In this document: piece after piece, positions 18,027-43,356 of the stretch
Layout: each line of letters opens with the position of its first letter
How positions within the stretch are numbered: position 1 is the first letter of the stretch
The notes under the pieces: generated by a model
The model's input: the letters and a program-made list of their open reading frames with translations, nothing else
The model's database searches: none
Told to the model about the DNA's origin: nothing
Assembly: GCA_964187785.1 (NCBI GenBank)
Contig: OZ076409.1
Coordinates: 26,662,001-26,726,000, forward strand
Direction: 5' to 3'
Source of the DNA: Amphiscolops sp. MND2022
Taxonomy: Eukaryota
Length of the DNA: 64,000 nucleotides
Made by a program: the position numbers and the translations under genes

Positions 18027-18297
18027 TGTACTGACCTACATTAATAACCAATAGTATTTAGATGTTTATAGAATGTTCTAGAATGTACATTTATTTATTA
18101 TTGAATGATTGTAAATCTCTACTCCCTCAGAGAGAGAAAGCTAATAATCAGTATTCGGTTGACTTCCTTTTTGTTCTACTACTACCACCTCGAACTAGTT
18201 GTAATAAAGTTAGCTAGCTAGCCTGTCTCTTAGCCGCTTTTAGTAGTTGTGAATAGTACCACCAATAAAGCAATAACAACACTTTGAAAGCAGCACA
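18027..18297 (+). repeat. 5' LTR of element 1
   Basis: tgtactgacc...gcagcaca, direct repeat of 36131-36401; contains AATAAA. Confidence 0.97.
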
Positions 18298-18300
18298 ATT

Positions 18301-18312
18301 TGGTGCGACTCG
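18301..18312 (+). promoter_or_regulatory. Primer-binding site of element 1
   Basis: TGGTGCGACTCG 3 nt after the 5' LTR; resembles a tRNA-His PBS (TGGTGCCGTGACTCG) lacking CGT (inference). Confidence 0.65.
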
Positions 18313-20167
18313 TAAAATGTCTTGCCTTTTTTCCTGGATGATTTCTCTTCTCTCAACAATAATACAAATACCACGCTCCATCTTTGAAATTCTCTGGAAT
18401 TGCAGTGAAATCTTTCTAGAATTTCTTGAAAATTTAGTCTGTGACTTTCTGAATTTCATCAATAAATACATCATCGTTCGAAATACAATTTCTCCACTAA
18501 AACAATTAACTCAAATATAACAAATTTTCTTCACTACCGGTTTATCACGTTTTCTAACACGTCGAAACGGTTTCATTTCAGACTGATTTATCCATTGTGA
18601 CACAGTTCTGTTTCTCTTCTCTTTCCAGACTGATTTATCCGTAAGTGACACAGTTCTGTTCTCTATACTGATTTATCACAGCTAATCCGGAAGCTTGTTG
18701 AAACAGTTCTTTGATGTTTGTCTGGTTTATCAAGGTTTTCTAACACCTTTGAAACAGCAACATTTGTCTGGTTTATCAAGGTTTTCTAACACCTTTGACA
18801 CAGCAACTTTCTTCAATCCTGCTATCTTGAACGTCAGGTGGACTCCTGGTGTAATAGTTGACTGAGTGCATGTACAGCTCCACTCACCTATAAGCACATA
18901 CGCCTCAAGATCAACTTCGTGTTGGCAGAAAACCTGGATTTTCTACTTTTACGTTTCGGATCCATTTTATACAAAAAATTCTTACAAAATAGTTTTCAGA
19001 AATAGTCTCTGAATACAAAAAAAGGCAACCAAGACTATCTACAAAAAGCAACCAAGCACTATTCCATTTCTTTTCTTATTGTCGACAAACAATACAAATA
19101 ATTTCACAAAACTTAATTAATAAAAGTAACTTCAAAACTTGAACAACACAAGAAAAATAACAACACAATTCACCCTCAATATTATATCGAATACTTTCAA
19201 CAGTAATAATTTTAACATAACCTACAAAACAATTATTTTAACAAAATACCACATACAATTCTCACAATTCTTTTGCCCTAACATCAAAAGTAAGGCATGT
19301 AAAAAAACAGACACTGTAAAGTTAGTTTTCTACTTTCAGGCACCCACAATTCCAATCCCCTCCTGTAAGACTTAGACAATCAGACAGCGTTACCAGCTCA
19401 CTCTGATTCTAAGACTGACTAAAATCGTTAGTTAAGTGTAAACGTCTTTAAAGAGAATCGAGAGGACATCGAACTACGTTCGAATCTTCAAAATTCTCAG
19501 GAAGCAAAAGTAAAAGTAAAAGAAACAAAGATCAAACTTTGATCTTGATCAGTATTGATCAGACTTTGGATAGTGGACGTTGATTGTTCAGAGTTCCACT
19601 CCCTTAGTCTTAAAACACACAACCCACTTAAAATTAAAACAACCTTAGTTTTTCTGGAAGTGTCAGTAACCTTATGTTAGACACTTTAAAGTGATCCAGA
19701 CTTAAAATTACATTTAGTTTCTGTTAGCAATCCTTGAGGTTGAATACAGATCCTACTGCATCCGCTTCTTTCTTCTCTATCCAAAACTATTAACATCCCA
19801 AATAACTTCAAATTAAAATACAAATTATATGAACCCTAATATATACAATCAAATAATTTATCCTTTCAACTTTTACATTCCACCAATTAGCTCCCTTCAG
19901 AACCCTACATCAAACGACTTTGAAAGATTAATTGAACGATATCAACAATATTTTTTCTTTATCATAAATCAACAAAGACATTATCCAAGAGCTCCAACTT
20001 AGAAAATTTCTATAAAAATTAGTTTCAACGTTTTAATCTTCACATTATAACATGTGGGAAAAAGTTACCACAGTAGTACTTATTACAACATACACGTTTT
20101 GTTTCTTATTTATAGTTTTTGTTCTCCTTGAAAAAATACTTACAGTGATAAGAGATAAACGTTAAAA

Positions 20168-23100
20168 ATGTCCTCAATAACAACCCCTCTACCCTTCCAA
20201 ACTCCCGTCATTAAAAATGCAAAAGTTGTAAAATTAGAACTAAATCCATTCCTACAAAACATTATTTCACATTATACACAACCACTCCCTTTTGAAATGA
20301 ACCTCACACAATCGAAACAATCCCTCTTATTAGAGAACATTTGGACACATATCTCTTCTATATTAGATATAAAGTTTTAACTATCACCGCAGAATACCCA
20401 GCTTTTCAAATCTCCTTTCCTCAACAAAGACCTAATTCATCTCATATACAGAAGAACAATAAACCCAATTAACCTCCAAGTTCCTATTAAACAAGTTTTT
20501 CACGCTTTTCTAAACAATGTGAAAGACCACAACCTAGCACATGAAATTCCAAAATTTAGTCCAAATGCACTTGACGACCTTCAACGATATATAAACAATT
20601 TCGATGTAGAAATTATTGAAAGATTAGTTGATCCTGAAGGCAATCCTCATCATTGGTTACAAACTGATATACTACGAATTCAAAATTTCCTCTACCATTA
20701 TTTCAAAGACTTAACATTAAATGACCAAATAATTCCTCAGATCAAAGTAATATCTCTATTCCTCAGAAAATACTTCAGATTTAATTATCAACTATTATGG
20801 TCACAACAAGATCAATCTGCTTTTACAGCATTCCCAGATCATCTTACAGTTGACGAATGTTTACCATTCATCATCAGTGAACAAAATGAACATCCTTATT
20901 TTCATAAACCACAATCGATTACAAAACAAACTTTAGATTACATACGTTTTGATCCTTTATTAATTACAGAAAATGATCTATTTGCAGACAATAGACCTTA
21001 TCACTATGAACAAAATTCTCAAGTTCAGCAAAATTTACATTTTAACACTAACAATTCTACCGAAGATGATAATACCGATCAGGAAAATACACTCCAACAA
21101 CAACATCAAAATGAAATAAATAACGATAATGAGTTTACAACCCAAGAATCTACAATTTCAACACATAATCCATCACAAGCAGGAACATCAACATCAACAC
21201 ACACTCAATCCTTTAGAGTTCCCACTAGAGTTGTAAATCAAAGACAAAAAACACATAGTCCTCAATCTCACTTAGATACATCTCCAAACCGTAATATAAC
21301 TTTCAACCTTCCATACACGGATGAAACACACGACGAAACCCATTACACAATACATGATGAGATTCTGACTGCAACTAGTGCTCAGAATACTTCTGTTAAC
21401 GTTGCATCTCCAACAAGAACTCTTTCTGATTCCACAAGATACATTACTCGACCTAGATACGATCCTCCATCAATCCCTTTGCTTTCCGATCAAATAGATC
21501 GATTTCTTCAAACAACAATTTTAATGATAATCCCCAAACTTCCAATCAAAATTACGATCCATTTAATTATAACTTTTATCCTCCATCAACCACAACTACC
21601 AATACAAATATTAACCAAAATTACTCTCAAAGTAATACAACTTCAATAACACAAAATCCCTTCATACAATTATCACATACCACTGCTTCACAATATACAT
21701 ATTCTCAAAATCAAGCAACTTCGTATCCTTCCACTTCTTATTCTAACAACGTACAAGCTTCTCAAAGGAAACTTCAAAACCCTCCACTTACACATATACC
21801 AACTGATCCTTTGTATCAAATGCATCCAAATCCTAATCCTAATCCAAATCCATTACCACAAAATACAATTCGAAATATACCTCCTCAACTTACACAACAA
21901 TTAGCTCCTACACTCCAATAATTACCAATGCCACAAGATACCTTTATGAACATGTCCGCTTCAATACCAGAACCTATGGAACCTTTTGATGGTTTAGACC
22001 ATTCTTATACCCCTGAAGAATATCTACAACAAGTCGAAGCTAGATTAACCTTCGCTATAAGTGAAGAACCTCAGAATAATCCTATAAAATACAAATCATG
22101 GCATAACAGACGCATGGCTTATATACAATGTTCATTAACAGGAACAGCTCTCGATTGGTACACTAACCTTCATATATCATATAAACAACAATGGAATTCC
22201 TTTGTACATTTATTCAAAAAACAATTTTCATCTCAAAAAACAGCTTACTACGCCCAAGTAGAAGCTATGTCACTCATGAAAAAAGATAATGAAACACTAC
22301 GCCACTTCGCCCTTAGAGTACAACAATTAGTTAAAAAGGGATGGTGTCATGAAAATGCAGCTACCATAAACCTCAAAAATAATGAAATCTTTACTAAAGG
22401 AGTACCCAAGAAGTTAAAAGATTTTGCCCATAAACGACAAGTTAAACATGTATCAACATTACTTGAACCTTCAATACTATTTCACACACTTGTTAGACAT
22501 GTCGATTCTGAAGATATTGCTAATGAAAAAATTAGAACTAATGACTTAGCTCTAGAAATAAACAAAGTATCACTTGAAGATGATACAAGCAAAAAGGAAT
22601 TTGAACATGAAGATCATATATTGGTTACTCAATCTGGAGACCCAAATAACAAAAGCAAACCAGCTTATAGAAAATATTGTTCCTATTGTCACAAAAATAA
22701 TCATAGTATCTCAAATTGCTATCAAAAACAACGCGATGATGAATACCAAAAATATAAGAACCAAAGATCACGAACTCCTCAACAATCCTTTGTACAATAT
22801 TTTCGCAGTAAACCTAACAGTTCACAAGAAAATCGAAATGACAATACAAATCCTTACTCCTCCGATAATGATCGTAACAAACATAATCAAAACAACTATA
22901 ATGAGAGATACCGAAATAATGATAGATATCGTAGCAATAGTAGAGAATATTCGCAAAACAACTACCGATCTAATTCTCGACAAAGATATTATAATCGATC
23001 TCGAAGCCCATATAGATCTCGATTTGATAATTATTAACAAAGAAGAACTCCATCTAGATCTCCATATAGATCTCCATATAGAAACAATTCCAATTACAGT

Positions 23101-23400
23101 TATAACTCTCGCTCAAGATACAGATCTCGTTCTCAATCACAAGGAAGTTCCTTAAAAAGATATAATTATCCATATAGATCTCCATCAAGACCTAGAGATT
23201 TTAGATCACGATCTAGAACACCCTCACGAAATAGACCACAAAACAGAATAAATCAAGTAGACGTTAAATCCACAAAAGACAATGATAGTACAAAGTTTGA
23301 AATCCATACATGTCAAACAACTGAAATAGCTAATACAATCACTCCTTACAGTTGGTTTTATCCATTATATATTCACGCTTCTGAAGCCAAGGATAATATA
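20168..23400 (+). pseudogene. gag: Extended gag (N-terminal domain, N/Q/T/S-rich linker, capsid, CCHC knuckle, RS-rich tail), disrupted
   Basis: ORFs 20168 and 20519 share a frame (one stop); frameshift near 21480; capsid-like PFDG...LTGTALDWY...W..FV.LFKKQF; zinc knuckle CSYCHKNNHSISNC; stops at 21919 and 23035; in frame with protease. Confidence 0.85.
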
Positions 23401-26400
23401 TTACCCTCACAATTAGAAATCTTATTCCTCTTAGATACAGGAGCATCCATATCTGTCTTGAACTTACCAACATTTCATGTGATTTCCAAACAATTAAACA
23501 TCAATGTTCCAACCAATTTTCAAAACAAAAGAGCCAAAACTCTTACAGTTGCAAACCAAACTGAAGTACCAATAAGACACTATATTTCGATAACCTGTTT
23601 CACTGAGGTAAATCATCAAACGCGATCCTTCAATATAGATTTTGCCGTAGCCAATATCAAATACAACATTCTTGGAACACCCTTTTTCAAAAAACACATC
23701 CAAAATATCGATTTTCAACAAAATATTATGACTTACACAGAACAACATCCAAAGCTCTCAACAAAAACAACATTTTCCACATTTACAGAAAAAGATTATC
23801 CATATATTTCTTACATCTATACTATTAAATGTAAAGAACCAATCCACTTTAAACCAAGGTCAGGAAAAACCATACATTTCCCAATTAAAAACTATTCAAA
23901 TCTACATTTTGAACTTGAAGATAATACAAAATTCTATCCAACAAACCCATATACATATTTCTTACAAAAATTTAAAAATATTTTTCATTTCTCAGATATG
24001 ATAGTCAATGAAAAAAGCAAAGACTCTTGTGCAACTATAATTCAAAACTTTACATCTTATCCAGCAACAATACCACGAGGAATCATTGGATACATAGAAA
24101 TACCTATTACTCAAACAACTCCTCCTCACTACAGAGTTAATGATGTAAATTCACTTATTCACTCTGTAATACACGCGTATCACCCTGATACCACAACTCC
24201 GATTAAACCAACTCCATATGCAGATATGAACTTATGTACTAGGGTAACACCACAATCCCTATTAGAAATAAACAAGATAGAAGTCAACGACAAAACACTT
24301 CAACTCCCTATACCTTCTATTACAGGAAACCTTCGACCCTCAGATAAAATTCGAAAAGATTTTCCTCCATTACCCTATTCTACAGAAAACCAACAATTCA
24401 TAAAGAAATTTAACTTTGAATACTCGGATTTATCCGATACAGAATATGTAAACCTCTGCAATATTTTGATTAATATTCAACATTGTTACGCCCAACATAA
24501 GAACGACGTAGGAAAAATTTCTACTCCATTCCGAATTAGAATAAAAGATAATTGTAAACTTCAAACACAAAGACCTTCAAAAGTACCAATTCACTATAGA
24601 GATAGACTAAATAAACTTTTACAAGAACTCGAAAAATACAACATTATAAAGCAAATTGGTTCCACTTCAGATGAAAAACACACCATTGGAACAACATTTT
24701 TAAACCCTTTAATTATTATCCCCAAAGGTGACTCAATAAAAGTTGTTTTAGACGCAAGACGTCTAAACTCAAATACCAACCAAGAACTTGAATCTTGGCC
24801 TATTGAACCTTTAGCTCCTCAATTAGCTAGAGCCAATAAAAATATAAATCAACTATTGATCTAATGTATGCCTATGCTCATACACCATTAGATGAAGAAA
24901 CAATTAAACTTACAGGATTTTCATCCGGTGACAAATTATACGCCTTTATCCGTGGATTTTACGGATTAAAAGGACTTCCAAACTTTTTCACAAAACAAAT
25001 GTCAACTTTCTTCAGATCACTTTTAGACAAACGTTCTGCGTTAGTTTATATAGATGATATTTTATTACTCGCCAATGAAAAACAAGAAATGTTTGAACTT
25101 ATAAAAGAATTACACACAATAGCTTCTCGAGAAAATCTCAAACTTGCACCCGAAAAATCCTTCTACATGTTACTCAAAGTAAAATTCCTTGGACACGAAA
25201 TTAGTAACAACACAATCAAACCAATTCCATCTAAAATTGAAGCCATTAAAATAATCCCATCACCAAAAGAAAAGAAAGATATTATGCAATTTCTTGGCAG
25301 TGTTAACTTTTACTCAAAATTCATTGAAAAACTTCATATAAACCTTAAACCATTGTATACACTACTACATGATGATGTTAAATTTCAATGCACACCTGAA
25401 CTAGAAAAAATATTTCAAAATGTTAAAAATGCAATGACAGCAGACACTGAATTAACAATACCCAATACAACACATCCATTTTTTATAACAGTAGATGCTT
25501 CATTAGTAGGTTTAGGCGCAGTCTTATTCCAAATGAACGAAGAAAATAAAATGAGAGTAATCTCTTACAACTCCAGAATTCTTAATACACAAGAACAAAA
25601 ACTTTCAACTTTAGATAGAGAACTTCTCGCAATAGTTTACGCACTACAAATATATGAATTTTTGATCATTGGATCTCCTCATCCCATATACCTCTTCACA
25701 GATCACAAGCCTTTACTCCATTGTTTCGCAAAGAAAGGAAATCTTAGTCCTAGGTTCTATAGAGCACAAATGCAATTAACCAAATTCTCCAAATTAAAAA
25801 TCTTTCATACCCCTGGAAAAAACTTAACTGTCGCAGATATGCTTTCACGAACGTTTACAAAAGAACAGTTACAAGTACACCAATTACGACACAAACAATT
25901 ACCACCTCAAATAGATTTTTCTATCATGAAAGATAATCAACTCAAACCAGTACATTATTTAGTAAAACATGAAGAAATCAAATATAATCAAAAGAATGAC
26001 TGTCATCCTATTCTTGCTGACTATGGAGACGACCAATTCTCTATCCGAATAAATAACAAAGGAGAAGATATACACATAAAACCTTTAGATTCCTTCTCTT
26101 TTCATTCTATTGTCCCATTTGAATTCAAATATAAAAAGCCTAAAAAAACCAAGCAAAGTCTCTCTTACAACAATCGACAATTCTTAATGATACTGATAGT
26201 CTCAGTGACGAAGACGAACTAACTCAATCAAATAACATCCAACATCAAAACTCAGACATATTAAAGGAACACACACTTGCTATACAATATCCTACCAAAT
26301 CTGATTATTGTAAACAACAAGTTCCATTTTTTGATCCATCTTTTTTTAAATACAAAAAATATTTTACTTATTTCTTCCTACCAGAAGATACACAAATAAC

Positions 26401-28169
26401 CATTGAAACAATAAAAACTCAACAAAAACAAGACACTGTTTTACAAAAGGTTTACCAATGGATACTTAATAATGAAAGACCCTTACAAATAGACCCAACA
26501 ATTGCAGCTAATTCTTTCTTATTAGTATACTACAAAATTTTCAACCAATTATATATTAACCATGACACAAACATTATCCATATAGATTATCCTAATCTTC
26601 ACGATTCCAATCCGAATCAAAGAGACAAAATATGCTTACCATTTAAACTCTTCCATGCAGCTTTTAACAAACTTCATGCTCATGGACATTCAGGTATAAA
26701 AATCTCCATCAAAGCTTTTACCCAATTTTATTTCATACCATATTTGAATAAACGGATGTCAATATTCATCCATGATTGTATTGAATGTCAACAAAATAAA
26801 CATAAACCAAAAAATACAAACTGCATCCATGCAAACATTCTCAGAAAATGCTTCATATTTCAATTATCGAATATCAATGGACACAAAAGGACCTATAAAC
26901 CCGCCATCAAATCAAAACTCATACATTCATGTTATAGTAGACGCTTTCAGCCACTTTGTAGTAACAGTACCTATAAAACAAAATAATGCTCAAAACGCTG
27001 TTAACTCAATACTACATCATTGGATAACAAAATTTGGACCCCCTGTATATCTAGTTACCGACAGTGGAACAGAATACATTAATTCAGAATTTGCAAATCT
27101 TTGTACAACAATGGGAATTAGACATTCACCAAGAACTCCTTATGCACCATGAACAAATGGTCTAGTTGAAAATCAAAACAGAAATCTTGGAACTCATCTC
27201 AGACTTTTCTTACATAACACCCCAGAAAACTGGTCTACACAAGTTCATATGTATGCTTATGCACATAATTCACAACCACTTTCTGAAATTAACTTATCTC
27301 CTTATGAAATAGTATTTCATACTGTACCCAGAATTCCAAATAATTTTGAACTCAATCTCCAAAAAGATACATATAGAAAATGTACTTCCCAATATTGTCA
27401 AGAATTACCACTTCATACACACTATGACAAATCAAATTTAAACCCCTTTTTCCATAAAATTTTATCTAAACCGATCCCACAATGGATCTTAGCCACTGAA
27501 ACTGCTATGATACAAATATACCACACAGTATATGAAAACACAAAACGAAAAATTAATTCTTACGCGTATTTTAATAAAACATACCACAATCCAAGACCCT
27601 TGGATATCGGTACATTTGTACTGAAAACAAATTTTCTCCATGTTCATTTTTCTGACAAATTAAAACCTCTCAGAATTGGACCATTCAAAATTTTTAACAA
27701 AATTTCTGATATAACATATGAAATTGTTAATCAAGATGGTTACACATCTCACATACACAGAAACCATTTAATTCCTTATTATCCAAAAGAACCAGTTATT
27801 TTTCCTTTCCTACAACAGTATAATCCTCATTTATTCAATGATAATTATTCAAATATAAACGACCAAATAATTAACTCCGATGGAAACCCACTTAATGACG
27901 AAGATCAATTTTCTTCCACAACATCTAATAAAGAAACGGATATACCATCCACAATCGACTTCCAACCAGAGCATTTTAGCCAATATTCTTCATTTCCGTA
28001 CCAACAAAAAGAACAAATTACTCAAAATACCAACATAGATAACCAATCAGATATTCATGACTATGATATCTTTATTAACCCCCGAAGACACTCCTATAAT
28101 AAATACAATTTCCGCCCACAACCAAGAAAAGACTATCAACTTTTCCTTGGAGAAAACGATATAATTTGA
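23401..28169 (+). pseudogene. pol: pol: aspartic protease, RT, RNase H, integrase (disrupted)
   Basis: LDTGAS (23431-23448), RT YIDD, RNase H ITVDASLVGLG / ELLAIV / TDHKPL, integrase HHCC, SMDTKG / VTDSGTEY core and GPF motif; frameshifts near 24841, 26150 and 26810, TGA at 27150. Confidence 0.96.
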
Positions 28170-28359: not shown

Positions 28360-29759
28360 CACAAAGATTCCAAAATTGATAGACATATTCACTCACCATC
28401 ATCAACCACAAATAACTCATCTTCTAGTTCAACACATTCACTCCAAAGACTACCTGAATATACAGCATATTTAAACTCAGATACAGACATACTGGATTCC
28501 TCATCCTCAAATCTTAGCCCATCCGCTCCTTATTCTCCTGATAGAGTACCAACAACACCCACAATTACACCTATACCCCAAACTCAAACACTAGTAATAA
28601 CAACTCAATCACAACCTACTTCACGAAATCTAACATTTGCCGAAACAAAGTCACCAATTTCTGTCAATTTTAAATAGACCTCCTCTTCCACCAATTACTA
28701 CCACTCGTTCCGTTCATATCCCTGATCCCAGCTCAGTTCTACAATACATAAATTCTTGTCCACATAAAGTACCAACTGCAACGAAAACAAAAAGAAAAAC
28801 TCCTTTACCTACATTACCACAAAACCTTAATTTATCATCATCAAGTAATACTCCAATAACATTCTTACCAGAACCTTCATTGAAATCACCAGCAAAGAAA
28901 TCACAACAACACCCAACTCCTTCACCATCTGAACTAAGTTCATTCACATTTTCTCAAATATATCCCAAGCTTGAATTAGAACGTGTACATTCCACCACCA
29001 CCTCTTCTTTAACAGATTTATATCTTAAAGACAAAGATTCTGACTCAACTGCTAGTCCTAGAATACCAAGACATAATTATAACCTTCGATCTCAGCAACA
29101 AAGAAATTTTTAAGAATTAACATCTTTAACTAGTTCAAGTCTAACTCAAGACTACTTAGACAGCACGCCCAACCCAGATTGGACACTCCTTCTCTTTCCT
29201 CATCTCAACCCACTATTCAATCTTCTTTTTCACTACCATTCCAAATCACATCAGGATTTGAAACAGCTTCTCTTCTCTCTGAAGACCCAGCAACTAAATC
29301 AGATAGCGCAGCTAATTTTTCACGAGTTTACTCGCCTAGTTCAATAGCATCGAACTCTTCTACACAATTACTTGAATATTTTTTAGAAGATTTCTCAAGA
29401 CCTCCAACACGAAAGTTAACTCAAAAATTGTTCGTACACTTAACGAAGATCCTCGATACACGGTCTTACCTGTACGATTTATAAACAACAGGTCACTCTC
29501 AACTCAAATGAAACAAAGAGAATTACGAAGATTACAAGAACAACAACTCACATTAAAATTTGAAGTAGAAGTCACATTCAATTCGTTAGGACCTCACCCA
29601 TTCTCGCTTTCAACAAGAGTAGCACACAAAACAACCCCATCACCATTCATAGTCACATCCATTTCTTACCTTTGTGACGCAGAAGTACCTGAGATTAGAA
29701 CAGGACATATAAACTTTTTTAATCCTTGTTCCGGACTTACTTATAGAACAAAATTTTAA
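28360..29759 (+). pseudogene. Accessory Ser/Thr/Pro-rich ORF between pol and env (fragmented), function unknown
   Basis: Consecutive reading frames 28360-28679, 28637-29113, 29179-29484 and 29508-29759 with continuous S/T/P-rich composition; contains PSAP and PPLPP. Confidence 0.6.
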
Positions 29760-29761
29760 CT

Positions 29762-32340
29762 GATATTTTAACCAAGAACCAAATTACCCTTACCCTATAC
29801 TTAATACAAGTTGTTAAATACACATATATAATACATATAGTTCACTCCTTCGTTCAACCTTCAACTGTTCCTAAAGTTGACACAACCAATTCCGAAAATC
29901 ATATTTCAGACAAAGACCCTAACATTTTAAACTTGATGGTATCCCATTATGATTGTGCAAAACAAAACAACCTAAGACAATTCAGTTTATTAAATGTTGA
30001 ACCATGTAAACAAGCACCCTCAGATATACAACACACAAAAACCCAAGCAACAGTTTATGTTAGAGCAAAAGCCAAACGAACAAAAGCCTTTAAATGCGAA
30101 GCATATATAAAGATTGAAAAAGTCTGGTGTTCACAAACATTCACATCTAGTAGACGATATGATCGTTTACAATGGGGACAAAACACATTAGAACTTCCAA
30201 AAATAATGGACCCTTTTGAATGCAAGAATATGGTAAGATATTTAAACGCAACTGATAGCGAAGAACTAAACAATTACTATATACAAACTCTTTCTCATTG
30301 TTTGACGGTAGTAACTATCAAAACACAATTGAACGAATTCAAACACAATTCAGGGTAAAAAATTAAATACATGGAATATTGGAACCTTCGTATTCGATGA
30401 AAATTATCCCGACTGGATAGGTAATGTTACACAAAATACATACTCCAGATGTCGATCAGACCGAGAACATTTGATTACCCGACAAAGTTGGAAACTTAGA
30501 ATTGTTAACACCGCAATAGAATATGACAATAAAAACAATCAATTAATACACGACGGACACATATTACCATGTTATCATTCAGATGGATTTTGTAAACCAA
30601 CGACCAAAACTCCATACACATTAACATGGTTTGATGCAAAATTTTGCCTCATATTTCAACTTCAAGAATTCATTGGTAGAATGACACGAATCAAAGATAG
30701 ATATTGGATTGAAACCGATACCTTCATTGAAACTTCAAATATCAAAAAAGAACTTCAAACTGAAGGAATACAAGGAACAAGATATCCAAATGTGAAAACA
30801 CCACAATCAAAAATAAGCAATCCAAGCCTTTCTCGATTTGAAATATACCCAATTGCACAAACCTTCTGTGGAAAACCTGAACCATTATTCTCAACACAAT
30901 ATGATGACATCTTTGTTACATACTTAGATGGTTTCAATATGAACACAGGACTACCAAAACCACACTCAATAATTGATCAAACAATTAGTGGAAACATAAA
31001 ATATGATGACTCAAATAAAAGGTATATATTCCCTGCATTGAATATATCAAATAATTTCGCCACTTTAGATTACGATGCCCATATTAATACAAAAATTGAT
31101 TTCACAATAAATCATGTATTTAAATCCATGACAGTACAAGAACTAAACACCCTTCATGCAATATGTGAACTGGAAAGAACTCAATTGTTAACAATCTTAG
31201 CTATGTCAGTAAAAAATCCTCAATTAGCCGGTTTTCTTTTAACTGGAAATCGTAGTAACTTTCTCTACGTTGAAGGATCTACAGCATGGCTGTATGATTG
31301 CCCTCATTTTATATCACCACTATACAAAGCAGATAAATGCTTTGATAGAATTCCCATACATTACAGAGAAACGACAATGTATGTTGATCCTATAACAAGA
31401 CAAACTTTTAACTACGCAACACCAATTGAATGTGGAAATAACCCACAAAATATAATTGAATTAGACCCAGACTCTCTTAACACCAGAACCACTCAAACGA
31501 GAAGCACCACAAATGTTTAAACCTACCCAAATTAAAACAACAATCACTCCTAATACAATTACCGCCCAAGATGCCGGTATATACTCAAATGCAGAATTAG
31601 ATCAATTCTGGAATAGAGTTTTATTTGCTAAACATTCAGACACAACCCTTCAATTACTTGGAAAATCATTAAGCTATGATTTTATTACAGTGCACAATGA
31701 TAAACATTCATACTCAGGACATAATCCTTATAATCATTTAAGGATTGGAGTACATGACCACTTGTTAAACCTTTTACCACTTTTTAATCCTGACTGGTTC
31801 AGTCAAGCATTCATTAATTTCTTTGGATACCCATGTTATGTTTTAACACAATGTGGAATTTAGTTTTCAACATTTCTTTTCATTAGAGAAGTTTTAACAT
31901 TTTTACTCAAATTCTACAGAACAATTAGCATAAAATACAATCTCCAAAGTAACATTTCCATTTTGAGTTCAATAGCCCATGGATTTTTTAATATAGTTAC
32001 ATCGGAAATGGTAACCGATTTAAACAATACAGGAAAAAGAAAACGGATATATACTAAACACAAAATTACAACAAGTGAAAATGACAATATACTATTGCCG
32101 GAAAAAGAAATAAAAAACAAACTAAAATACTCCGATAATGACTCCCCTTATTTACCTCCGAAATATTCCAGTAAGAATTCAATATTTCAATCACCGCAAA
32201 AGACACACCCAACTACTGTCAAGACACACCCAACTACTGTCAACGATATTAATTCTCAGGACTATGACCAAGTAGTATCAAATGTAATAGCTATACCGGA
32301 AAGTCCTGCTAAAGTCTTTATTAAATTTAATCCCTCCTAG
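29762..32340 (+). pseudogene. env: Envelope glycoprotein, class III fusogen (chuvirus G / herpesvirus gB-like), disrupted
   Basis: Hydrophobic signal-like stretch ITLTLYLIQVVKYTYIIHIVHS, then HYDCAKQNNLRQFSLLNVEPC; INTKID...ICELER...NPQLAG...WLYDC...CFDRIPI...YVDPITRQ...TPIEC; C-terminal TM around 31805-31915; frameshifts near 30290 and 31475, TAG at 31861. Confidence 0.85.
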
Positions 32341-32795
32341 CTAAACCAAAATAAACAAATTAACCTCAAAAAAAAGTTCAAAAATAGATCAATAAAATTC
32401 TTCTCAGTTTAACGTTCATTCAAACCCAAATTCTCACTCGGACCAGTCTCCCCTTTTCAACTCAACAAAAATTCACTTACCTATCAAAACTCAGCTCTCA
32501 ACCAGAAGACTTCAACTGGATTTTCAGTCCTCCTAAAAAAGACCGAAATTACAGAAGTTTCTATTCCTGGAATAGATGCCACTGTGATTGTTGATGTTTT
32601 CAACCAACTGTTGATGTTTTCAACCCACCATTGACTCAGTTATTCCCATATTGTAAGTACAATTTAAACTTCATTTTTAACAAACAATTTAATGAATAGA
32701 AAAGACATAACGAAATTTTTTCTCATTATTAAAAATAGTATAATCAAACGTTGTAATAATTATTTTAGCTCTACAAAAACACACAAGTTTAAATA

Positions 32796-34088
32796 ATGGA
32801 ATCCTTGCCCGAAATTGATGTAGTTAATTCTAACCCCTCTGAATTGCTTGCACCCCCCTTGAATATAACCATTCAACAAAATGTTAACGAAGATAATAAC
32901 TCTTCTTCAAACTCTCAAGATCTCTTAGAAACTATTCCTATTGAACAAATAGATCAAGTTAACGCAAGATCTCAAAAAAGAAAGTACCCAGACATAACTG
33001 CAGACAAACCATTTATGGAATCTGGCGCTTGCCCTCCTTTCATAAAGCCAATTAAACAAGATGAAGATAGAGATTGTGAATTAGTTTCTATTCTCTCATC
33101 AAAACAGTTTACCTTTCAATCTCAGTTAACCTCGTTATACATGATTCCAACAAAATACAAATTTATCATCAGAGAATTTAAAAATGATTATCATACTTCA
33201 ATTGCTTCAAAATTGATCACCCCATATGATTGGTGGTTGAACAATAAAGTGAAAATTTTTTCACTCCAATATAATTTCCTCAGACCATCTCCATATGATC
33301 TTCGAACCGAAGAAAATGACGCAAATTTTCTACCATACTAAATCAAAAAAGCTCATCACATAACTTATCAAAAGTTTCTTCAATATAAAGAACCCAAAAA
33401 TTATATATTCTTCAACTCCAAATACACCTCGCCATTTACTTTCAACTCAGAATACTTAATAGATCATACCAAAACAAAAGGAAAACTTAGAAATTATGAC
33501 CCGCTGAAACAAAGTTTTCTTTTCCTTCCGAACGATAACCCAAAAAGACCAATCATTGTACCACAAGAATACCTCATCTTGAACGACGATTCGTTATTAC
33601 AAGAAGATATACCTCAAAATATATCTGATCCTCTTCCTCCACTTCAACATATAGCCTCTCAACCTTTAGGAGACTGTGAAAAATCTTATTTCTACGCAAT
33701 GACCAAAAAAGGATATTCAAATAACGAATTAATTTTCATTATTTCTCACCTGCTTTCACTTCTTACAAATGGAAATCATAAAGAACACAAAAAGACAAAA
33801 CCAGAATTGCCAAAGAAAACTAAAAATGACATTCCTCAACCACAAAGTTTTCGCCCAACTGACGAATTACAGAAATATACCGAAATTCTGAACATCATAA
33901 AACCTTATCATCGTCCGAACCGAGATATTCTTATAACAATCGCCGAAATCGTAAATACCCTTGAACAAGCTCGAAGCATTATACAAAATATCGTATTTGA
34001 TACGACAAGAATTAGCCAATCAGCTTTGTGTATTCGCATATCTTTAGACGAATTCAACTACACAATTGAAAAAATGCACCGATCTTAA
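32796..34088 (+). pseudogene. Accessory ORF downstream of env (~430 codons, single internal stop at 33339), function unknown
   Basis: ORFs 32796-33341 and 33579-34088 share a frame and the intervening codons are open; preceded by tattttag acceptor-like site at 32761-32768. Confidence 0.7.
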
Positions 34089-34494
34089 CTGGTAATTATG
34101 GGATAATCACTTTAAATTGTTAACACTTATCACTTAATCTCTTAACAACCTGTCAAAATTAATTGAGTCTACACGCATATACCTGCTACGCAGGATTATA
34201 GTACATATTTGATATTAAAACATTTCTTTAAAATAAAATATTATAAAAAATTTCAATCATGACATAAAAATTTTTAAAAAAATTTCCCAATTGCTCCTCC
34301 TTTTAATTGACCGATTTCAACAAATAAGTACTTATATGAAAGATATTTAAAAATCCTTCAAAAAGCTTCCAAAATACAGCAACTTAATTCTTAAAATTAA
34401 AAAGTTATAACATCACAAATTACATCAAAAAACTGTCAACTACGAAATTCTATTTTCAAAGAAACTTTATTGTAAACAAACTAATCTATTTTAG

Positions 34495-35087
34495 GTGAAT
34501 ATCGTCACAACTGCTTCTTCATCATTCCTTCCTCCTCTCAAGCCCTCCATCCAAAAAGAATTCCAACGTATCTTCCACAAAATTCAACGAAATTCTTCAT
34601 ATTCTTCAACATGACAACTCTTCATTCTGGTGACATAGATTGCCCGATAGCTCCTTTTCTTTCAATTTGTTCAGCTCGATTGCGATCCTTGATTCTGAAA
34701 AAGCATTTAACAACATTAAATGCGCAACTCAAAGCAGATAAAAAGGCTGACCCTCATCTTACAAGGATGATATTGCTCAATATGTTACAAATATTCCAAA
34801 TTACACAAATAAATTTTGACCAATATCTTCAAATTCATAAACATCCTGATACATATTCAACCCAACGAGACACCGCTACCCAAACAGAGCATACGACCAT
34901 CAAACCCAAACGTTTAATGCGAAGTCTATCTAACAGAATGCGTTCTGAAATGGAAAAACAAACTCTAAATTCCTATTGGCCTTCAAATGATAACGACGAT
35001 ACTGATGAAGAACTTCAAAAAGACCCTCCAGAAGGACGTCTAGATGATAATTATCCATACAAAACGTATACTTACGTCTCTTTCTAA
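34495..35087 (+). CDS. Second accessory ORF downstream of env, probably a spliced exon, function unknown
   Basis: Branch point CTAAT (34481-34485) + tattttag|GT acceptor; frame open from 34497 through ATG 34611 to TAA 35087. Confidence 0.55.
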
Positions 35088-36130: not shown

Positions 36131-36401
36131 TGTACTGACCTACATTAATAACCAATAGTATTTAGATGTTTATAGAATGTTCTAGAATGTACATTTATTT
36201 GTTATTGAATGATTGTAAATCTCTACTCCCTCAGAGAGAGAAAGCTAATAATCTGTATTCGGTTGACTTCCTTTTTGTTCTACTTCTACCACCTCGAACT
36301 AGTTGTAATAAAGTTAACTAGCTAGCCTGTCTCTTAGCCGCTTTTAGTAGTTGTGAATAGTACCACCAATAACGCAATAACAACACTTTAAAAGCAGCAC
36401 A
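36131..36401 (+). repeat. 3' LTR of element 1
   Basis: Direct repeat of 18027-18297; preceded by purine-rich aaaaaccgggatgga (PPT-like). Confidence 0.97.
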
Positions 36402-37588
36402 GTTGTCGAGCTCTTCAATTGAAATACGCCTTCGGAAATGCGCCATAATCAAATACTGAAGTATTTCTAGGATAAGCTCGAGAAAAGAGATAAGAATCAA
36501 TGTTTACTCTCAACGTAAGGTTACTGTTATGATGCAAGCATTTAGAGTATAGGCTAAGTAGTTGTTAGTAAACAAACTAAAAATAGCAACGGAGATATAA
36601 TGTTGTTTATCAACAGTGTCTTCTACATTCCCCCTTCTGTGATTGGAGGAGAATCATCCAATGGATATCCATTGCGGTCCTTTTTGTCGTTATGTTCGGT
36701 CGTCCGTCCCTGGTCTGGTGATGTTTTCTCCGGTGTTCGTGAGAAGCGTGTTGTATTTCCGGTTGTGGGTAAGTTGTACGTCTTGGGCGATTCACTGGTC
36801 GTCCTCTTTGTCCTGTTCCGGCATTTCTTTCGTGCACTCCGGAAGTGGTGACAGGGTGATTCGTTTTGTTGTGTTTCCTGTAATCAGATTGGTTAACTGA
36901 GTCAATTAATATAACGATTGGGTTTGTTTTCGTTAACCTCTTTGACCGGCGTAGGTTAGCATTTTTTAGTTTTTCTATGTCTTTTTCTTTTTCAGTGCTA
37001 GAACTTAGATTACTTGCTAATTCTAGTTCTGAGAACTTGCTAATTCTGTTTTGTTATTATAAACTGTTACCTTACCGGAATTGTCTCTGATTTGGATCTC
37101 TTGCCCCGACTGTAGGGAGTCTCTTATTGTTTGGTCTATGTCGGAATCCGACATTTGGTCCGTATTTATGGTTAATGGTCCCATCTCTGAGCTTTTTGTT
37201 TGCCTGGTGTTTTGCCTGAGGATGCTGAGGCTGTGCGGTCTCTTATCAGCCGTGGCTTGCCTCTGCCATTTGTTCCTGGCCGTTTAGTGGTGGGCGGTTC
37301 TGGGCTGGTATCCAGATCTTCTTTCGATTAGGATTTTTCGGGAGTAGTGGTGGCTTTGTTTGGTTTCCTTGCAAATCTCCCGTCTGGTCCTCTTAGTCCG
37401 GTCCCTCTGTTTGTTGGTTCCTGTTCAAATGTATCAATATGTTTGCTAATAAGTTTACGGTGAATAATTTTATTATCTGAAGTTGTCACTCTATGTTTTG
37501 TTCCATTGACTGCTGTTTTTAAGTGTTCCGAGCGTGGGCTTTCAAATTTTCCCTTCTCTTTTTTTGTTCGATGAATTGAAACGGATAT

Positions 37589-40500
37589 TTACTTACCGTT
37601 TTTGCACCTTTTTTGTTTCATTGGTAGATGGTCGGAGCTACCGCCTTCTCCACTGAATGTGTATACCTGAAAGGTATCTGGTCTCGCTGAAATGAAATCA
37701 TTGGTTATTGTTTTGGTTTTGTCTAATTTTAGCATGTTACTCCATTCCGTGTTCGGTTCTCTGCCGAAGTGTAATTCAAATACGGATTTTCTTAACCTAG
37801 TCTGCGGTTTTGTCAGCATTACGTTTAGAGCTAAGTCCAATGCTTCTCCGAATGGTTCTCCGGCTTTTATATTAGTTAACAGATTTTCTTTTAGAGTTCG
37901 TACTCCTGGTTCCACTAAGCCGGTTGTGTTGTGAATATACGGTGTTCCGTATATTATTTTGAAATATTTGATTTTGCAAAAATTTCTAAACTGACGTCCG
38001 GTAAAAACTGTTGCCTTATCCGTTCTTATGGTTTTCGGTATACTGTTTAAGTTGCAGTAATGTTCTAGAAACTTTATTGCCGTTTCTCCGTCTTTAGTTT
38101 TGCACAGACTGGTGACTGGCCATTTGCTGTACCTGTCCAATGAGAGCAAGATGTAAAATCTACGGTTCTGATCCGTGATTGGTCCAATGAAGTCCAATTG
38201 GATTTCTTCGTTCGGTGCTCTTAATGGGGGTAAGCTATTTTGTTCCGATTTAGGTATATTAGGTTTAATATTCTTACTGGAAAGGTTGCACGGTATGCAG
38301 TTGTCGGATTTTCGTTGTATCGCCACCTGAAGTGTTTTGCTGATAAAATCATCTTGTTTCTGAAGGGTGTCCTTTCTGAAGTATGCTTATGACGGTTGTT
38401 TGCAGGTTGATTGGCACATTGATTTTTTCTTCAAAGAATACCAGTCCGTATCGTGTTGATAATTTTTCTTTTTGTATAGGCGGTACTCGTGCGGGATGTT
38501 GTCGTATTGTTGGCGCTCCAAACAAACGAGTGTCTTCAATAGTTTGGGGTCAATAGTTGTTTCAGTCATAAGCAGTTGTAAGTCTGTGGCGAATTCTGTT
38601 TCCATTTCTCGGACGGTATTTTCCAGTTGTTTTGTTCAAGGGCTTGAACTCTCGCAGCGTGTCCCATCTTTATATACTGTACGCTCTTTACCCCAACATA
38701 ATTTGCCCAGTTGATGGTGGGTACCTCCAGTACTGACGGTGCCAGTTCGGAGTCGCTGGAAATTTCTCTTTCCTCCATTGGGGTAATTTCTGTTCGGTTG
38801 TATTGTTTAACCGGTTGACATCTTGATGTGCCCGGTAGGTCGTCTGGTGTTCGTTGCGGAAGTTTTGGAAGTTTTGTGGTGAGGGCGCGGTAAAATGCCA
38901 ATCCGCGGTGTACTCGTCCGATTGCTGTTGTCGATGTGGCCGGTTTCGAATTTCCCTGGCCGGGCTTTCTATTCTCCGGATTGTTTCGGAAAGTCTTTCT
39001 TCTATTTCTCTTCTTTCTCCACGGAGATATTTTGGTTCGTGGTATTTTTTCCATTTGCCGCTTGAGAGTCGGTATCTTCCTGGCTTCACGATGTTTCGCC
39101 ACCGCTCTATCAAACCGATTGTCTCCTGGGAGCGATGTATTTTCTCCAGATAGTCTGGCGTCCATTGTTTAAAATTTAACTTGATTTTGAGAATCAATGC
39201 TGCTTGTTGCGATACGATCAAGGCTATTAATGGCGCTCTGTTCACGCGTGTGTTCCGTTGACGGTTGCCTTTTCACTTTTGTCCCATTTGGGGTTCCGTT
39301 GCTCGAATATGATTGGTTGAAATGGTTGCTAAGGCAACCAACTTTTGAAACAAAATCGTAATGCGGTACCATGCTGTTGATTACGTTTTCTTCTTCGTAC
39401 GTTTCATCTTGTTGTGGCGGCGCGTTTGGAATTCTACTCAAGTAATCCGTCAATGCTAGGTGCTTTCCCGTATTGTGGTTTACGATAATTTTGAAATGCG
39501 CTAATCGGTCTAATCACCGAATTAAGCGGGAGCTGTACGTTTTATTTTAGCCGTTGCGTTTTATTAATGGCTCTAAAGCTTGGTGGTCGGTCAGCAATTT
39601 TATGGGTTTACCGTATATACTACGGAAATGTTCTAAGCCCCATACTACTGCCAGTAACTCTAATTCATTGATGGCGTATTGTTTTTCGGTACCCGATAGA
39701 AATCTGCTTGCGAATGCTACGGCTTTTTTTCGCCGTTGTGTTGTTCTTGCCAGAGTGTTGCGCTTAAACCTTTTGTACCTGCGTCTGTAGTTATTGTATT
39801 CGGTAAACTGAAGCTGTAATGTGCCAAACACGGTATCTCCCTGATTTTGTTTTTTAATTGCGTAAATGCTTCGGAGTTTTCTGGTGTCCTGTTCCATTTG
39901 CTGTTCTTTTTCAATAATTGTCATAGTTAATCTGTTTGGGCTGACAAGTTTTCGACGTACTTTGACAAATTTTGAATTGCTCCTAAAAAGGATTTTGGTT
40001 CTTTTTCGTCCTTTGGTATTTTTAGTCGGCGCATTTTAGAAGAAAATGAGCCCGACTATTACAGTGGCAAGTTTTTTTTCTTTTTTTTTTCGTCAGACCA
40101 CAGAATGTATGCGTAGTGGACACTTTTTACAGAACTACTAAAAGTACTGAACCGGCAAGCGGAATGACATCTGAGTTACTGCAAAGGGTCCCCCCTTTCG
40201 TGTACTCAATTTTTAACGTAAGATACAAAACCGGACGGGACTACAGGGTCCCCCCTTTGAATTTTTTTCGGCACTGTGCGACTTTTTTTTCGAATTTTCT
40301 TTTGTGGCCAAACGGTCCCCCCTTCAAGTTTTTTTGATATTTGGCAGCAAACCGAAGTTTCAAAAAGCCCAAAGGGTCCCCCCTCTCTAGTTTTCGGCAC
40401 TGTGAGACTGTTTCGAAATTCTCATTTTTCATTTTTTCAAAGTTTTTTCAAAAAAAAATTCCGGATTTTTTTATTGTCCAATTTTTTTGATATTTTGCAA

Positions 40501-42753
40501 CAGACTGGATTTTCAAAAAGCTGAAAGGGTCCCCCCCTTTTACAAGTTTAAAAACTTAGCGCTTTTTTGAGCCTTAGATATAGCGCCGACTTTAGACGTT
40601 GCCGTCTTGTTAGTTCTTGTATGTATTTGAGTTTGTCTCGTAACGGTCTAATACCGTTTTGGTCAATTTTGTGCCCACCCATTCTTTCGGTTTTGTTCTC
40701 GGTCAGTCTATATCCTGCGTTTTCTAATTTGGTTGATACGTCTATTAACTCGTTTGTGTTGTTCTTTTGGTCCTTTTGTGACCACTAGTATGTCATCTAA
40801 CCATGCCGGATGTTTGTTTTCCAGTGTTTTGTCGATTTTTTTTGGAATACGGTCGGTATGTCTGCAAAACCGTAGAAACTTTTTGAGAACCTGTAGTAGC
40901 CGGTAAAGTTTCCTCCGGTTACAGCAAATATGCACAATTCCATTGCTTTCTTCGATAACGGTAGTTGATCGTACGCGTAGTCCAGATCAAACTTGGATAT
41001 CCATATCTCGTCTGCTTCTCCGTTAGCAATTGTTTTTGATTTTCTGGATAATAACTCCTCCGTATTTGGTATTTGTGCTTTCCTTTCACTGTGATTCCAT
41101 TGAGTTTCCGTGAATCAAGAGCTATTTTTACAGCTTTGTCTTTTTTGACTGTGATAACGGCTGTGCTGACAAAACAATTTTCGTCGATATCTGTTGCTTT
41201 TTCGATACGGCCGTTTTTCATTAGTTTTCACTTTCTTTCCCGACTGCCAGTTGTAAATGAATTGGCATTGGTCGGCCTTTGTGTTGTATCAGCTTTGCGT
41301 CTGGTTTTAATTGGATGTCTACTTCTATTCTTTTTATTGTTTTGTTTTCCTTGACTTGTTTACCGAATTTTTTCTTTAGGTGAGCGATATCTGGGTCTTT
41401 TTGGATGTTTTGAATTTGTAGGTGATTTTTTTCGATGTTTAGTTTCATTCCCATATGTTTCATCCAATCTAGTCAGAGTAGTGGGTCCGTTCCTTTTTTA
41501 AGTAATCAAAAGCTCTAGTTTCTTCTTTTCTCTGTCCATTTGAATGTTTGCTATTGTTTTATTTTCAAATTTGATTTTGTTGTTGTTTGCGTCTTTGTAA
41601 TCCTGTTGGAGTGGGCATATTGTTGTAGTTCAATTGAATTTTTGTTTTGCTATGAAGTGTGACCGGTGATCCGCTGTCTATTATGAGTTTGATTGGACGG
41701 TTGTTCACCAATTCCGTCACGGTAAAGAATGGCTGTCTGTCTTTGGATATTTGTCTCGTTGAATGGACCGTGTTGTTTATTGAATGTATTTTGTTAGGTG
41801 TCCAGTTATCTTCTTCTGCACTTGTTGCTTTGGAGTCTTGTTGAATATGTTTTACTCTTCGGTCCGAATTTTGTTTTGATCGGCATAATTTTGCGTGATG
41901 ACCTATTTTTCCGCAGTTTGGACACTTTTTGTCATTGCTGGGTAATCGTGTGATTTATTCCAATTTGGTGCCCCGCATCTAATACAGTCCACGTTTCTGA
42001 ATTTGTTGTTTTTTTCTTTCGGGTTTTTGAAAGGTTCATTTTCTATCCACATGTTTGATTTTTGTTTCTTCTTCAGAATCTCTTGATGCGCTCATTTTTC
42101 GTACATGTATTTGTGGATGGTATCGGTGATTGTTTCCACCGACATGTCTCCTTTCTTTCTTTTTTTTTCTTTAGGTCATTGTCACCCGTCGTTTTTCCAG
42201 TATCGGATAGGAACTTTGATGCGAGCAGTTCGGCTGTCGTTATTTCTTCGAATTCGCAATTCTTTTCGATTTCTAGAATGCGTTTCCAGGTTTCTGCAGC
42301 TGAATCTCCCGGTTCTCGTTTTAAATTGAAGAAATCTGCTCTGCTATGGTGTTTGTTCTACTCGGGAATGAAGTGTAGTCGGAAAAGAGTGTAAAGTCGG
42401 TATAAGGGTAGAGAACTCGGTTCTCTTTCTTTTACCCTCTTTGTCATTTCCGTGATCGCTGATTGTCAAATCGCCCATATGAATACATCTTTGATTTCCT
42501 CTTCCAACTGGTCTCTGAATTGTGGTAGTATTTCTTTGGAGTTGGTCATTTTCGATAAATCGATATCACGTGTCATCTTGATTAATTGGACGAATTTTCT
42601 CCACCATAGTTTTGCACTGGTGTGGTCATTCTTCTCAAGGATCGGAATGGGTAACTTCTGTGTAGATGTCCGTTCTACCGATCTCGTCGTTGTATTGTTT
42701 GGGATTGACTGGCTACTGTTCGGTCCATTTATGTCGCCGTCTTCGTCCTCCAT
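37589..42753 (-). pseudogene. gag-pol of element 2 (many frameshifts; split by a Helentron-like insertion)
   Basis: Start MEDEDGD (42753); knuckles CIRCG...H and CPNCGKIGHHAKLC (~41880-41990); protease IDSGSP (~41665-41682); RT WLDD (~40795); RNase H TTDAG, ELELLAVVWGLEHF, TDHQAL; integrase LDFIGP / IRTD / GLVE. Confidence 0.93.
40021..40611 (+). mobile_element. Helentron/DINE-1-like element, family A, nested in the RT of element 2
   Basis: tttAGTCGGCGC ... GCGCCGACT-ttagacgttgccgtCTTGTT, inserted in a T-run; removal restores the RT frame. Confidence 0.92.
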
Positions 42754-43356
42754 TGTTTTGTTTATATTGCTCACTGCGCCATGAAGTATTTCTAGGATAA
42801 ACTCGAGAAAAGAGATGAGAATCAATGTTTACTCTAAACGTAAGGTTATTGTTATGATGTAAGCTTTTAGAGTATAGGCTAAGTAGTTGTTAGTAAACAA
42901 ACTAAAAACAGCAACGGAGATATAATGTTGTTTATCAACAGTTTTTTCTACAAATACAGAGTAATAACTTTCGTCAGTGCTGTACGCAACTATTACAGTG
43001 ATGAATGTTTTCCTCCAGATTAAAACACCACAGATTAAATAGACCTTTCCAACACAAACTTGAATTATCTCAACTGTTACTTCATTTCTGTGCAACATTG
43101 AGCTGACCGCACAACGCATTTTAATCTTTTTACCAAATATTTGTTTCTCTAGAGGATCGAAAAAGTCGCCGACTGACTTCTTTGGCGTTGAAAGATTTCT
43201 TTCCTTGACTTTGTTTTCTCCGAAAGGGTCGTTGTTCATAATATTTGGATATTTTACAACCATCTTGAAGTAATAAGAGCTGAGATGACATTTTTCTCAA
43301 AAACAGATCCTACGGAAACTTTGAAAAACTATGAATGGGGTGTCGATTAGAGGCGT

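Follow-up and report, generated by a model that had tools for sequence, protein, structure and literature searches.

What are the two open reading frames that follow env at this locus, and from which RNAs could they be expressed? Complex regulation through spliced 3′ accessory genes is characteristic of the foamy viruses and lentiviruses of vertebrates; the usual depiction of env-bearing Ty3/gypsy elements shows just gag-pol-env. The window analyzed here, a stretch of 64,000 nucleotides from Amphiscolops sp. MND2022, carries such an element with two additional frames, A and B, behind its env gene. From the sequence of the window, the first-pass annotation had proposed that they encode accessory proteins made from spliced RNAs. 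Both ORFs were located where they had been placed, all coordinates being verified: ORF A spans 32796..34088 (430 codons) and ORF B 34611..35087 (158 codons, no interruption). All genes, LTRs, exons and introns of the element described below are on the forward strand.

The env-bearing element and its copies

The host element is an 18.4-kb env-bearing Ty3/gypsy element, present in hundreds of copies in a genome of 1.07 Gb that has spliceosomal introns. Its 5′ LTR (18027..18297, 271 nt, TG...CA) directly follows the 4-nt target-site duplication GTTG, while the 3′ LTR (36131..36401) has a purine-rich tract before it and GTTG after it. The two LTRs of the window copy differ by 7 mismatches over the 274 nt compared. 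With a PBS starting TGG, the purine tract, the LTRs and the target-site duplication, the element has the ends of Ty3/gypsy (Metaviridae).

Between the LTRs, gag (20168..23037; Retrotrans_gag, PF03732) is followed by pol (23038..28169) with the Ty3/gypsy order PR-RT-RNaseH-INT as assigned by Pfam. ORF X (28360..29759), a third accessory frame that is in pieces in the window, lies between pol and env. The env gene (29747..32340, stop codon 32338-32340) encodes a chuvirus-like fusion glycoprotein matching PF24664 (Monjiviricetes_fusion). The match, a Pfam result from sequence only, has E = 1e-13 in the window and E = 5.3e-27 in a sister family of the same genome. In the window copy, gag, pol and env have all decayed through stops and frameshifts.

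The sister family was reached via its homolog of A. Its RT is 66-68% and its A protein (A′) about 32% identical, and A′ likewise lies behind env. In PDB, the sister-family pol matches Ty3-G best (E = 9.5e-50), with foamy pol ranking behind it (E = 4.5e-20), and both this result and the Pfam order indicate a Ty3-like pol. With env after pol and a chuvirus/gB-like fusogen by Pfam, the element belongs with the gB-type env-carrying Ty3/gypsy elements.

When the second half of ORF A served as query, 6,391 candidates were obtained, and the 150 that were scored were all at least 94% identical. For the alignment, 80 loci were considered; one duplicate and four loci without an adjacent A-B pair were left out, and L001 was replaced by the window. 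The resulting 75 sequences (the window and 74 loci) comprise subfamilies G1 (46, window included), G2 (12) and G3 (15) and two mosaics. Over the three subfamilies, DNA identity to the window ranges from 71 to 96%.

ORF A and ORF B are selected genes

The frame of A had been described as broken by only one stop. This stop, at 33339-33341, occurs in 1/75 copies and is private to the window. The ATG of A is kept in 64/74 aligned copies and its stop codon in 70/75; for B the figures are 68/75 and 72/74. Fully open frames were found for A in 33 and for B in 42 of the 75 copies.

The dN/dS ratio, named beforehand as a check, was far below 1 between subfamilies (~0.1-0.15). For A, the 528 pairs from 33 open copies gave 0.09-0.14 at dS > 0.05; for B, with 42 copies and 800/861 pairs in bins, the ratio was 0.08-0.15 at dS > 0.2. 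The choice of copies with similar proteins and an uninterrupted natural frame lowers these values. The youngest pairs gave 0.28 (A) and 0.78 (B), the higher values being expected from decay after insertion. Because the dN/dS set was chosen by similarity, mismatches were also counted by codon position over all mapped G2 and G3 copies. A third-position excess was present in all of them, broken copies included; in G2 the first, second and third positions gave 0.14/0.08/0.36 for A and 0.27/0.16/0.47 for B. Start and stop codons are conserved, and ORFs A and B are protein-coding genes under purifying selection. The element thus has accessory ORFs after env and before its 3′ LTR, as a complex retrovirus does.

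Profile searches detected homologs of A down to ~30% identity in the same gene position; those with a listed source were all from ENA, and none carried a name. Alternatively, the ORFs would be decaying captured sequence and the splice motifs chance occurrences in AT-rich DNA. The 16 TTTYAG sites within the element and the many broken copies would fit this reading, but it does not account for a dN/dS of ~0.1, conserved start and stop codons, distant homologs in the same position or the exact intron losses described below. Its probability is negligible.

Intron 1 is precisely absent from two genomic copies

The acceptor-like motif TATTTTAG at 32761-32768, 27 nt upstream of the ATG at 32796, was present as annotated, and its AG is kept in 69/74 covered copies. 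Overlooked at first was a donor, GTAAGT at 32653, whose GT is found in 68/70 covered copies. The element has five strong donor-like sites, of which only 32653 and 34092 are conserved. Together, donor and acceptor bound intron 1 (32653..32768, 116 nt, GTAAGT...TTTTAG).

Splicing was assessed at the DNA level by searching the genome for copies with exon starts not preceded by the acceptor. For the start of the A exon seven matches were obtained, of which five were mutated acceptors and two were exact junctions. In L251 (G1), position 32652 is joined to 32769 and the 116-nt intron is exactly gone, so that the donor 116 nt upstream is seen as the partner of acceptor 1. In L255 (G2), the homologous intron is gone at the same bases. 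Both are LTR-to-LTR insertions that retain intron 2, and their closest relatives are copies of the same subfamily with intron 1 in place (identities of 96-97% for L251 and 88-89% for L255). As a control, the 30 internal deletions listed for copies of the window's family were inspected, and among these GT...AG ends at the reported boundaries were seen in L251 only. BLAST gives such boundaries as estimates, and L255 exceeded the gap range of the scan. In the searches for intron-less copies, two candidates were discarded because their resemblance, of L243 to the junction pattern and of L257 to the acceptor pattern, was due to chance.

We are almost certain that intron 1 is spliced. Rare intron-less proviruses of this kind amount to a fossil RT-PCR, by which splice sites of high-copy elements can be mapped without RNA data.

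Intron 2, the B exon and the sister family

The exon carrying ORF A (32769..34091) runs from acceptor 1 to donor 2 and is a putative cassette exon. The G|GTAATT donor-like site that had been noted behind A starts intron 2 at 34092, 3 nt past the A stop, with GT in 71/75 copies. The proposed CTAAT...TTTTAG acceptor, ending at 34494, is likewise present, and its AG is kept in 72/75. Intron 2 (34092..34494, 403 nt, GTAATT...TTTTAG) is non-coding. Every subfamily keeps the donor and acceptor of this intron, and both match host introns, as judged from 26 predicted junctions in myosin genes, mostly ending TTCAG/TTTAG. Conservation of the splice sites among copies, as had been predicted, therefore extends to acceptor 1, donor 2 and acceptor 2.

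Two details of the annotation did not hold. CTAAT as a branch site is bound to subfamily, occurring in 43/46 G1 and 6/12 G2 copies, with CCAAT in 15/15 G3 copies. Nor does acceptor 2 open in frame with B: the length between them, modulo 3, is 2, 1 or 0 in 37, 26 and 12 of the 75 copies. An N-terminal extension of B via acceptor 2 was rejected because the phase varies in all three frames, and B is concluded to start at its own ATG. The segment 34495..34610 is the 5′ untranslated stretch of the B exon, its frame not being conserved.

With the junction patterns searched, no junction into acceptor 2 was found in the window's family from either donor 2 or donor 1, compared with 512 exact matches to the acceptor motif of G1. 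Since the intron-less rate is a few per thousand, this absence is weak evidence. One of the junction patterns used fits the exon starts of G2 and G3 but not G1; two cover G1, and one of these does not cover G2.

The sister family provides the corresponding junction. A donor lies 3 nt past the A′ stop in 21/30 loci (many of them near-identical), as in the window's family; one sister subgroup has a donor-like site ~60 nt past the stop. A T-rich, host-type acceptor lies 2 nt before the ATG of the next ORF, B′, in 28/30 loci. In L242 and L244 the intron of ~650 nt between A′ and this ORF is exactly gone. The two loci, both of which reach a 5′ LTR, are 98.0% identical to each other, and each has a separate intron-bearing copy that is more similar to it (98.6% and 99.3%). 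With a single base of microhomology at the junction, slippage is an unlikely cause. The only intron-less form found in the sister family is A-to-B and not A-skipped, and no clear equivalent of intron 1 was seen there. Intron 2 of the window's family, which matches the intron removed from these two copies, is very probably spliced. As judged at the DNA level from intron 1 and the sister-family A-B intron, the accessory region appears to be spliced like that of a complex retrovirus. Loci L206-L221 of the sister family include many near-identical copies of equal search score, indicating a very recent expansion.

B′ (~300 codons) is also selected, with dN/dS of 0.13-0.29 (three pairs), compared with 0.05-0.06 for A′ (three pairs). 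No similarity between B and B′ was detectable; the B slot has accordingly been replaced or has diverged past recognition. A and B represent two new selected protein families.

In the spliced form of the sister family the B′ ATG is 5 nt past the A′ stop. Such proximity would allow B to be translated from the mRNA of A, intron-2 removal placing its start near the A stop so that ribosomes reinitiate. The donor 3 nt past the stop in both families would suit a stop-restart arrangement, as would the exclusively A-to-B form of the sister family. However, the spliced gap in the window's family is ~118-119 nt and variable in length, one sister subgroup has its donor-like site much farther from the stop, and no dedicated signal was identified, although reinitiation past a 430-codon ORF normally requires one. 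We consider reinitiation unlikely. Scanning ribosomes could not arrive at B across A either, given the 15 ATG triplets within A.

Identity within intron 2 is 0.75-0.81, above that of synonymous sites, a value that ignores gaps and may be inflated by AT-rich alignment. A hidden ORF was rejected, as all frames contain stops and frameshifts and there is no codon periodicity. RNA structure was also rejected (3 pairs, no covariation, 12 sequences). Conservation of this type, with neither coding signal nor structure, is what a protein-bound cis element might show. GCATG, presumably the motif of the Rbfox splicing factor, occurs in intron 2 near 34187-34194 in 58/75 copies (altered in the window) and after B near 35340 in 50/75. 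These motifs could control inclusion of the A exon.

A candidate internal promoter and proposed expression

The first-pass annotation had named the leader, besides 34092, as a donor source for the spliced RNAs. Its idea of accessory proteins on spliced RNAs agrees with the purifying selection, the conserved splice sites and the exact intron-less copies; the leader as donor source was not supported. The sole GTAAGT of the leader, at 18641, is kept in 0/18 covered copies. The leader (18298-20167, 1.9 kb) has an identity of 0.82-0.85 to G2/G3 and is poor in ATG (8 versus 19 expected). It contains a conserved acceptor-like site at 19339 and weaker GT sites, of which 40/101 are conserved and are possible donors.

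The best-conserved stretch of the spacer between env and A is a block ~80 nt upstream of donor 32653, with an identity of 0.87-0.92 as against 0.59-0.69 at the four-fold sites of A. It contains a 17-bp palindrome (32560..32576, assigned to neither strand) with 8-bp arms and a variable centre, which holds TTCCnGGAA. This core, the only such site in the element, is present in 65/74 copies, the centre being G in 34, T in 32, A in 3 and C in 1. The palindrome was absent from the sister-family loci scanned. We take TTCCnGGAA to be the STAT-binding consensus. It suggests an internal promoter, but may instead be an enhancer or an RNA element. The block has a slight third-position bias, with 5 synonymous versus 7 non-synonymous variant pairs, which leaves a small probability for a tiny coding exon there. 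Coding from exon 1 into A was rejected as a conserved feature because the block-to-donor distance, the only length on which the phase test rests, takes all three phases.

In the reading that we favor, at somewhat better than even confidence, A and B are selected genes likely expressed from alternatively spliced subgenomic RNA whose start is probably an internal promoter downstream of env. With the same modest preference, a short non-coding exon that ends with 32652 would join either acceptor 1, giving the mRNA of A, or acceptor 2, in which case A is skipped and B comes first. The exon of A would thus behave as a cassette: inclusion would yield A and skipping (32652 to 34495) would yield B. Donor 2, three bases past the A stop, would close the A exon; with the junction so near its stop codon, the A mRNA would escape nonsense-mediated decay. 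We again slightly favor a start of the short exon at an internal promoter, of which the TTCCnGGAA palindrome would be the mark. Nearly all integrated copies keep both introns, from which it follows that genomic RNA is mostly exported unspliced. Overall, the genes and intron 1 are well supported, and the isoform logic and the promoter are moderately supported.

The stretch ending at 32652 may alternatively be an internal exon fed by a leader donor, within LTR-started, multiply spliced RNAs as in lentiviruses. The conserved leader GT sites and the acceptor-like site at 19339 would be available for this, a conserved AG pair (32553-32557) lies directly ahead of the palindrome block, and the intron-less copies come from genome-length RNA. 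Nevertheless, no strong leader donor is conserved, and G2 has lost the acceptor-like site of position 32527, where AG survives in 1/10 copies. Moreover, a perfect palindrome with a 1-nt variable centre gives no RNA hairpin and fits a dimeric DNA-binding site. A leader-fed exon is a real but clearly less probable arrangement than the internal start.

Spliced-leader (SL) trans-splicing is common in some invertebrates and was reported for 30.2% of genes in one acoel (10.1101/2022.08.27.505549). The acceptor-like sites might serve this process or sit in gene-by-gene promoters, cis-splicing being a rare side event, as the rarity of intron-less copies would allow. Against this, a conserved cis donor lies upstream of each acceptor and four proviruses carry fixed, exact joins of donor to acceptor, and we regard it as improbable.

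Features and possible functions of proteins A and B

The first-pass annotation recognized neither protein and predicted helical segments in both. Low-confidence AlphaFold models agree with the latter, placing helices at residues 300-324 and 356-429 of A (pLDDT 32.9) and 19-42 and 48-75 of B (pLDDT 55.2). For the transactivator or silencing-suppressor roles that the annotation had offered as examples, no homolog of known function emerged for either protein. None of A, B, A′, B′ and X had a Pfam match at cut-off, the best PDB profile matches had E = 0.98 (A) and 0.24 (B), and the ESM Atlas yielded no usable match. Metagenome and viral contigs contained no relative of A, and Foldseek with the B model returned no match under E 0.001.

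Protein A is soluble, with no hydrophobic segment (maximum KD19 1.14), a disordered N-terminus and C-terminal helices. A basic K-K/R-K motif stands at the start of its conserved core, which spans about residues 60-330, in 6/6 homologs checked. On account of these features A is tentatively viewed, at somewhat under even confidence, as a putative nuclear regulator of element expression, either a transactivator or an export factor for intron-retaining RNA like CERV of Cer1. Protein B is small and partly helical with an acidic tail. It may be a faster-changing, replaceable, host-facing modulator, but this is a guess and a rather doubtful one.

ORF X

ORF X is open over 450-495 codons without a Met in both families (e.g. 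L128:4896-6362 and L228:5415-6773). It is selected, with dN/dS of 0.10-0.28 between subfamilies. Its DNA has 0-3 ATG triplets in any frame versus 7-9.5 expected, which suggests a non-AUG start or spliced entry, with ribosomes scanning across X to env.

Comparison with known elements

In foamy viruses, Tas and Bet arise by alternative splicing, with expression driven by an internal promoter located at the end of env (PMC13220597), and these viruses produce almost full-length DNA copies without the bet intron (PMC3814592). The element resembles the foamy viruses of these accounts in its two accessory frames from env to the 3′ LTR, its intron-less genome-length DNA copies and its presumed alternative splicing (PMC13220597, PMC3814592). 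Unlike a foamy virus, it is a Ty3/gypsy element with a chuvirus-like fusogen; a spumaretrovirus identity was rejected, as its RT and Env were not of the retroviral, foamy type in Pfam and PDB searches. In addition, its introns flank ORF A instead of cutting into it, so A and B are unfused. Compared with foamy viruses, its internal promoter is a candidate and transactivation is a conjecture. No homology of A or B to Tas or Bet was found in Pfam or PDB.

According to a survey from 2026 that covers Ty3/gypsy elements with env, the gB type of env is widespread, in 'ancient errantiviruses' (PMC13524379). The element shares with these the gag-pol-env order, LTRs, many similar copies and the chuvirus/gB-like env class; it differs from the elements of that account by adding three selected frames (X, A and B) and spliced 3′ genes (PMC13524379). 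No mention of splicing, accessory genes, an internal promoter or ORFs downstream of env was found in the main text of the survey, and its supplements may list relatives (PMC13524379).

CERV, an accessory protein of the C. elegans Ty3/gypsy element Cer1, is made from a spliced mRNA and is needed for genomic RNA export (PMC10309623). Like CERV, A is without outside homologs of known function and would have a spliced mRNA; CERV has a KRKK-type nuclear signal (PMC10309623). Set apart by description, CERV replaces env and shares gag exons, whereas the element has env and A has its own ATG (PMC10309623). Membership of the CERV family was rejected: env is present, the A ATG is kept in most copies, and an in-frame stop just precedes it in G1 and G3.

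In the env-bearing, Ty3/gypsy-like Tor3b and Tor4b of Oikopleura, an internal promoter in an intergenic stretch drives an unspliced env (PMC4402516). The candidate promoter of the element differs in lying behind env, where it would drive spliced accessory genes. LTR retrotransposons of plants and bdelloid rotifers carry a third ORF that is env-like, enzymatic or antisense in the accounts consulted (PMC7264820, PMC5408684); the element instead has two sense ORFs after a true fusogen. In the literature searched, which consisted of main texts mostly outside subscription journals, no paper was found on a Ty3/gypsy element in which two spliced sense ORFs follow env.

The complex layout of this invertebrate element, whose fusogen is unrelated, points to convergence. 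In its fullest and most speculative form, which we think unlikely to hold in every part, an invertebrate Ty3/gypsy lineage would have become complex-retrovirus-like independently. It would combine an internal promoter behind env that responds to host STAT, a splice switch between A as nuclear regulator and B as swappable counter-defence, and an AUG-free X ahead of env. If this were true, host immune signalling would switch the element on.

Minor features of the element and its surroundings

Two copies, L092 and L094, are the mosaics of the alignment, in which ORF A is G1-like but ORF B is G3-like, indicating recombination of subfamilies at the A-B boundary. The A-B region is tandemly duplicated in L017 (and in L013/L028). 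At the L017 duplication junction 35930 is joined to 32788 at G|GT and AG|, compatible with back-splicing or with a template switch on 2-nt microhomology.

Each LTR contains a perfect GAAnnTTCnnGAA (18071-18083 and 36175-36187), which was not seen in the sister-family LTR and which we assume to be a heat-shock element. A second LTR element lies on the minus strand at 36457-42952, starting ~55 nt past the 3′ LTR of the env-bearing element. It has 171-nt repeats that are 95% identical and pol-like frames.
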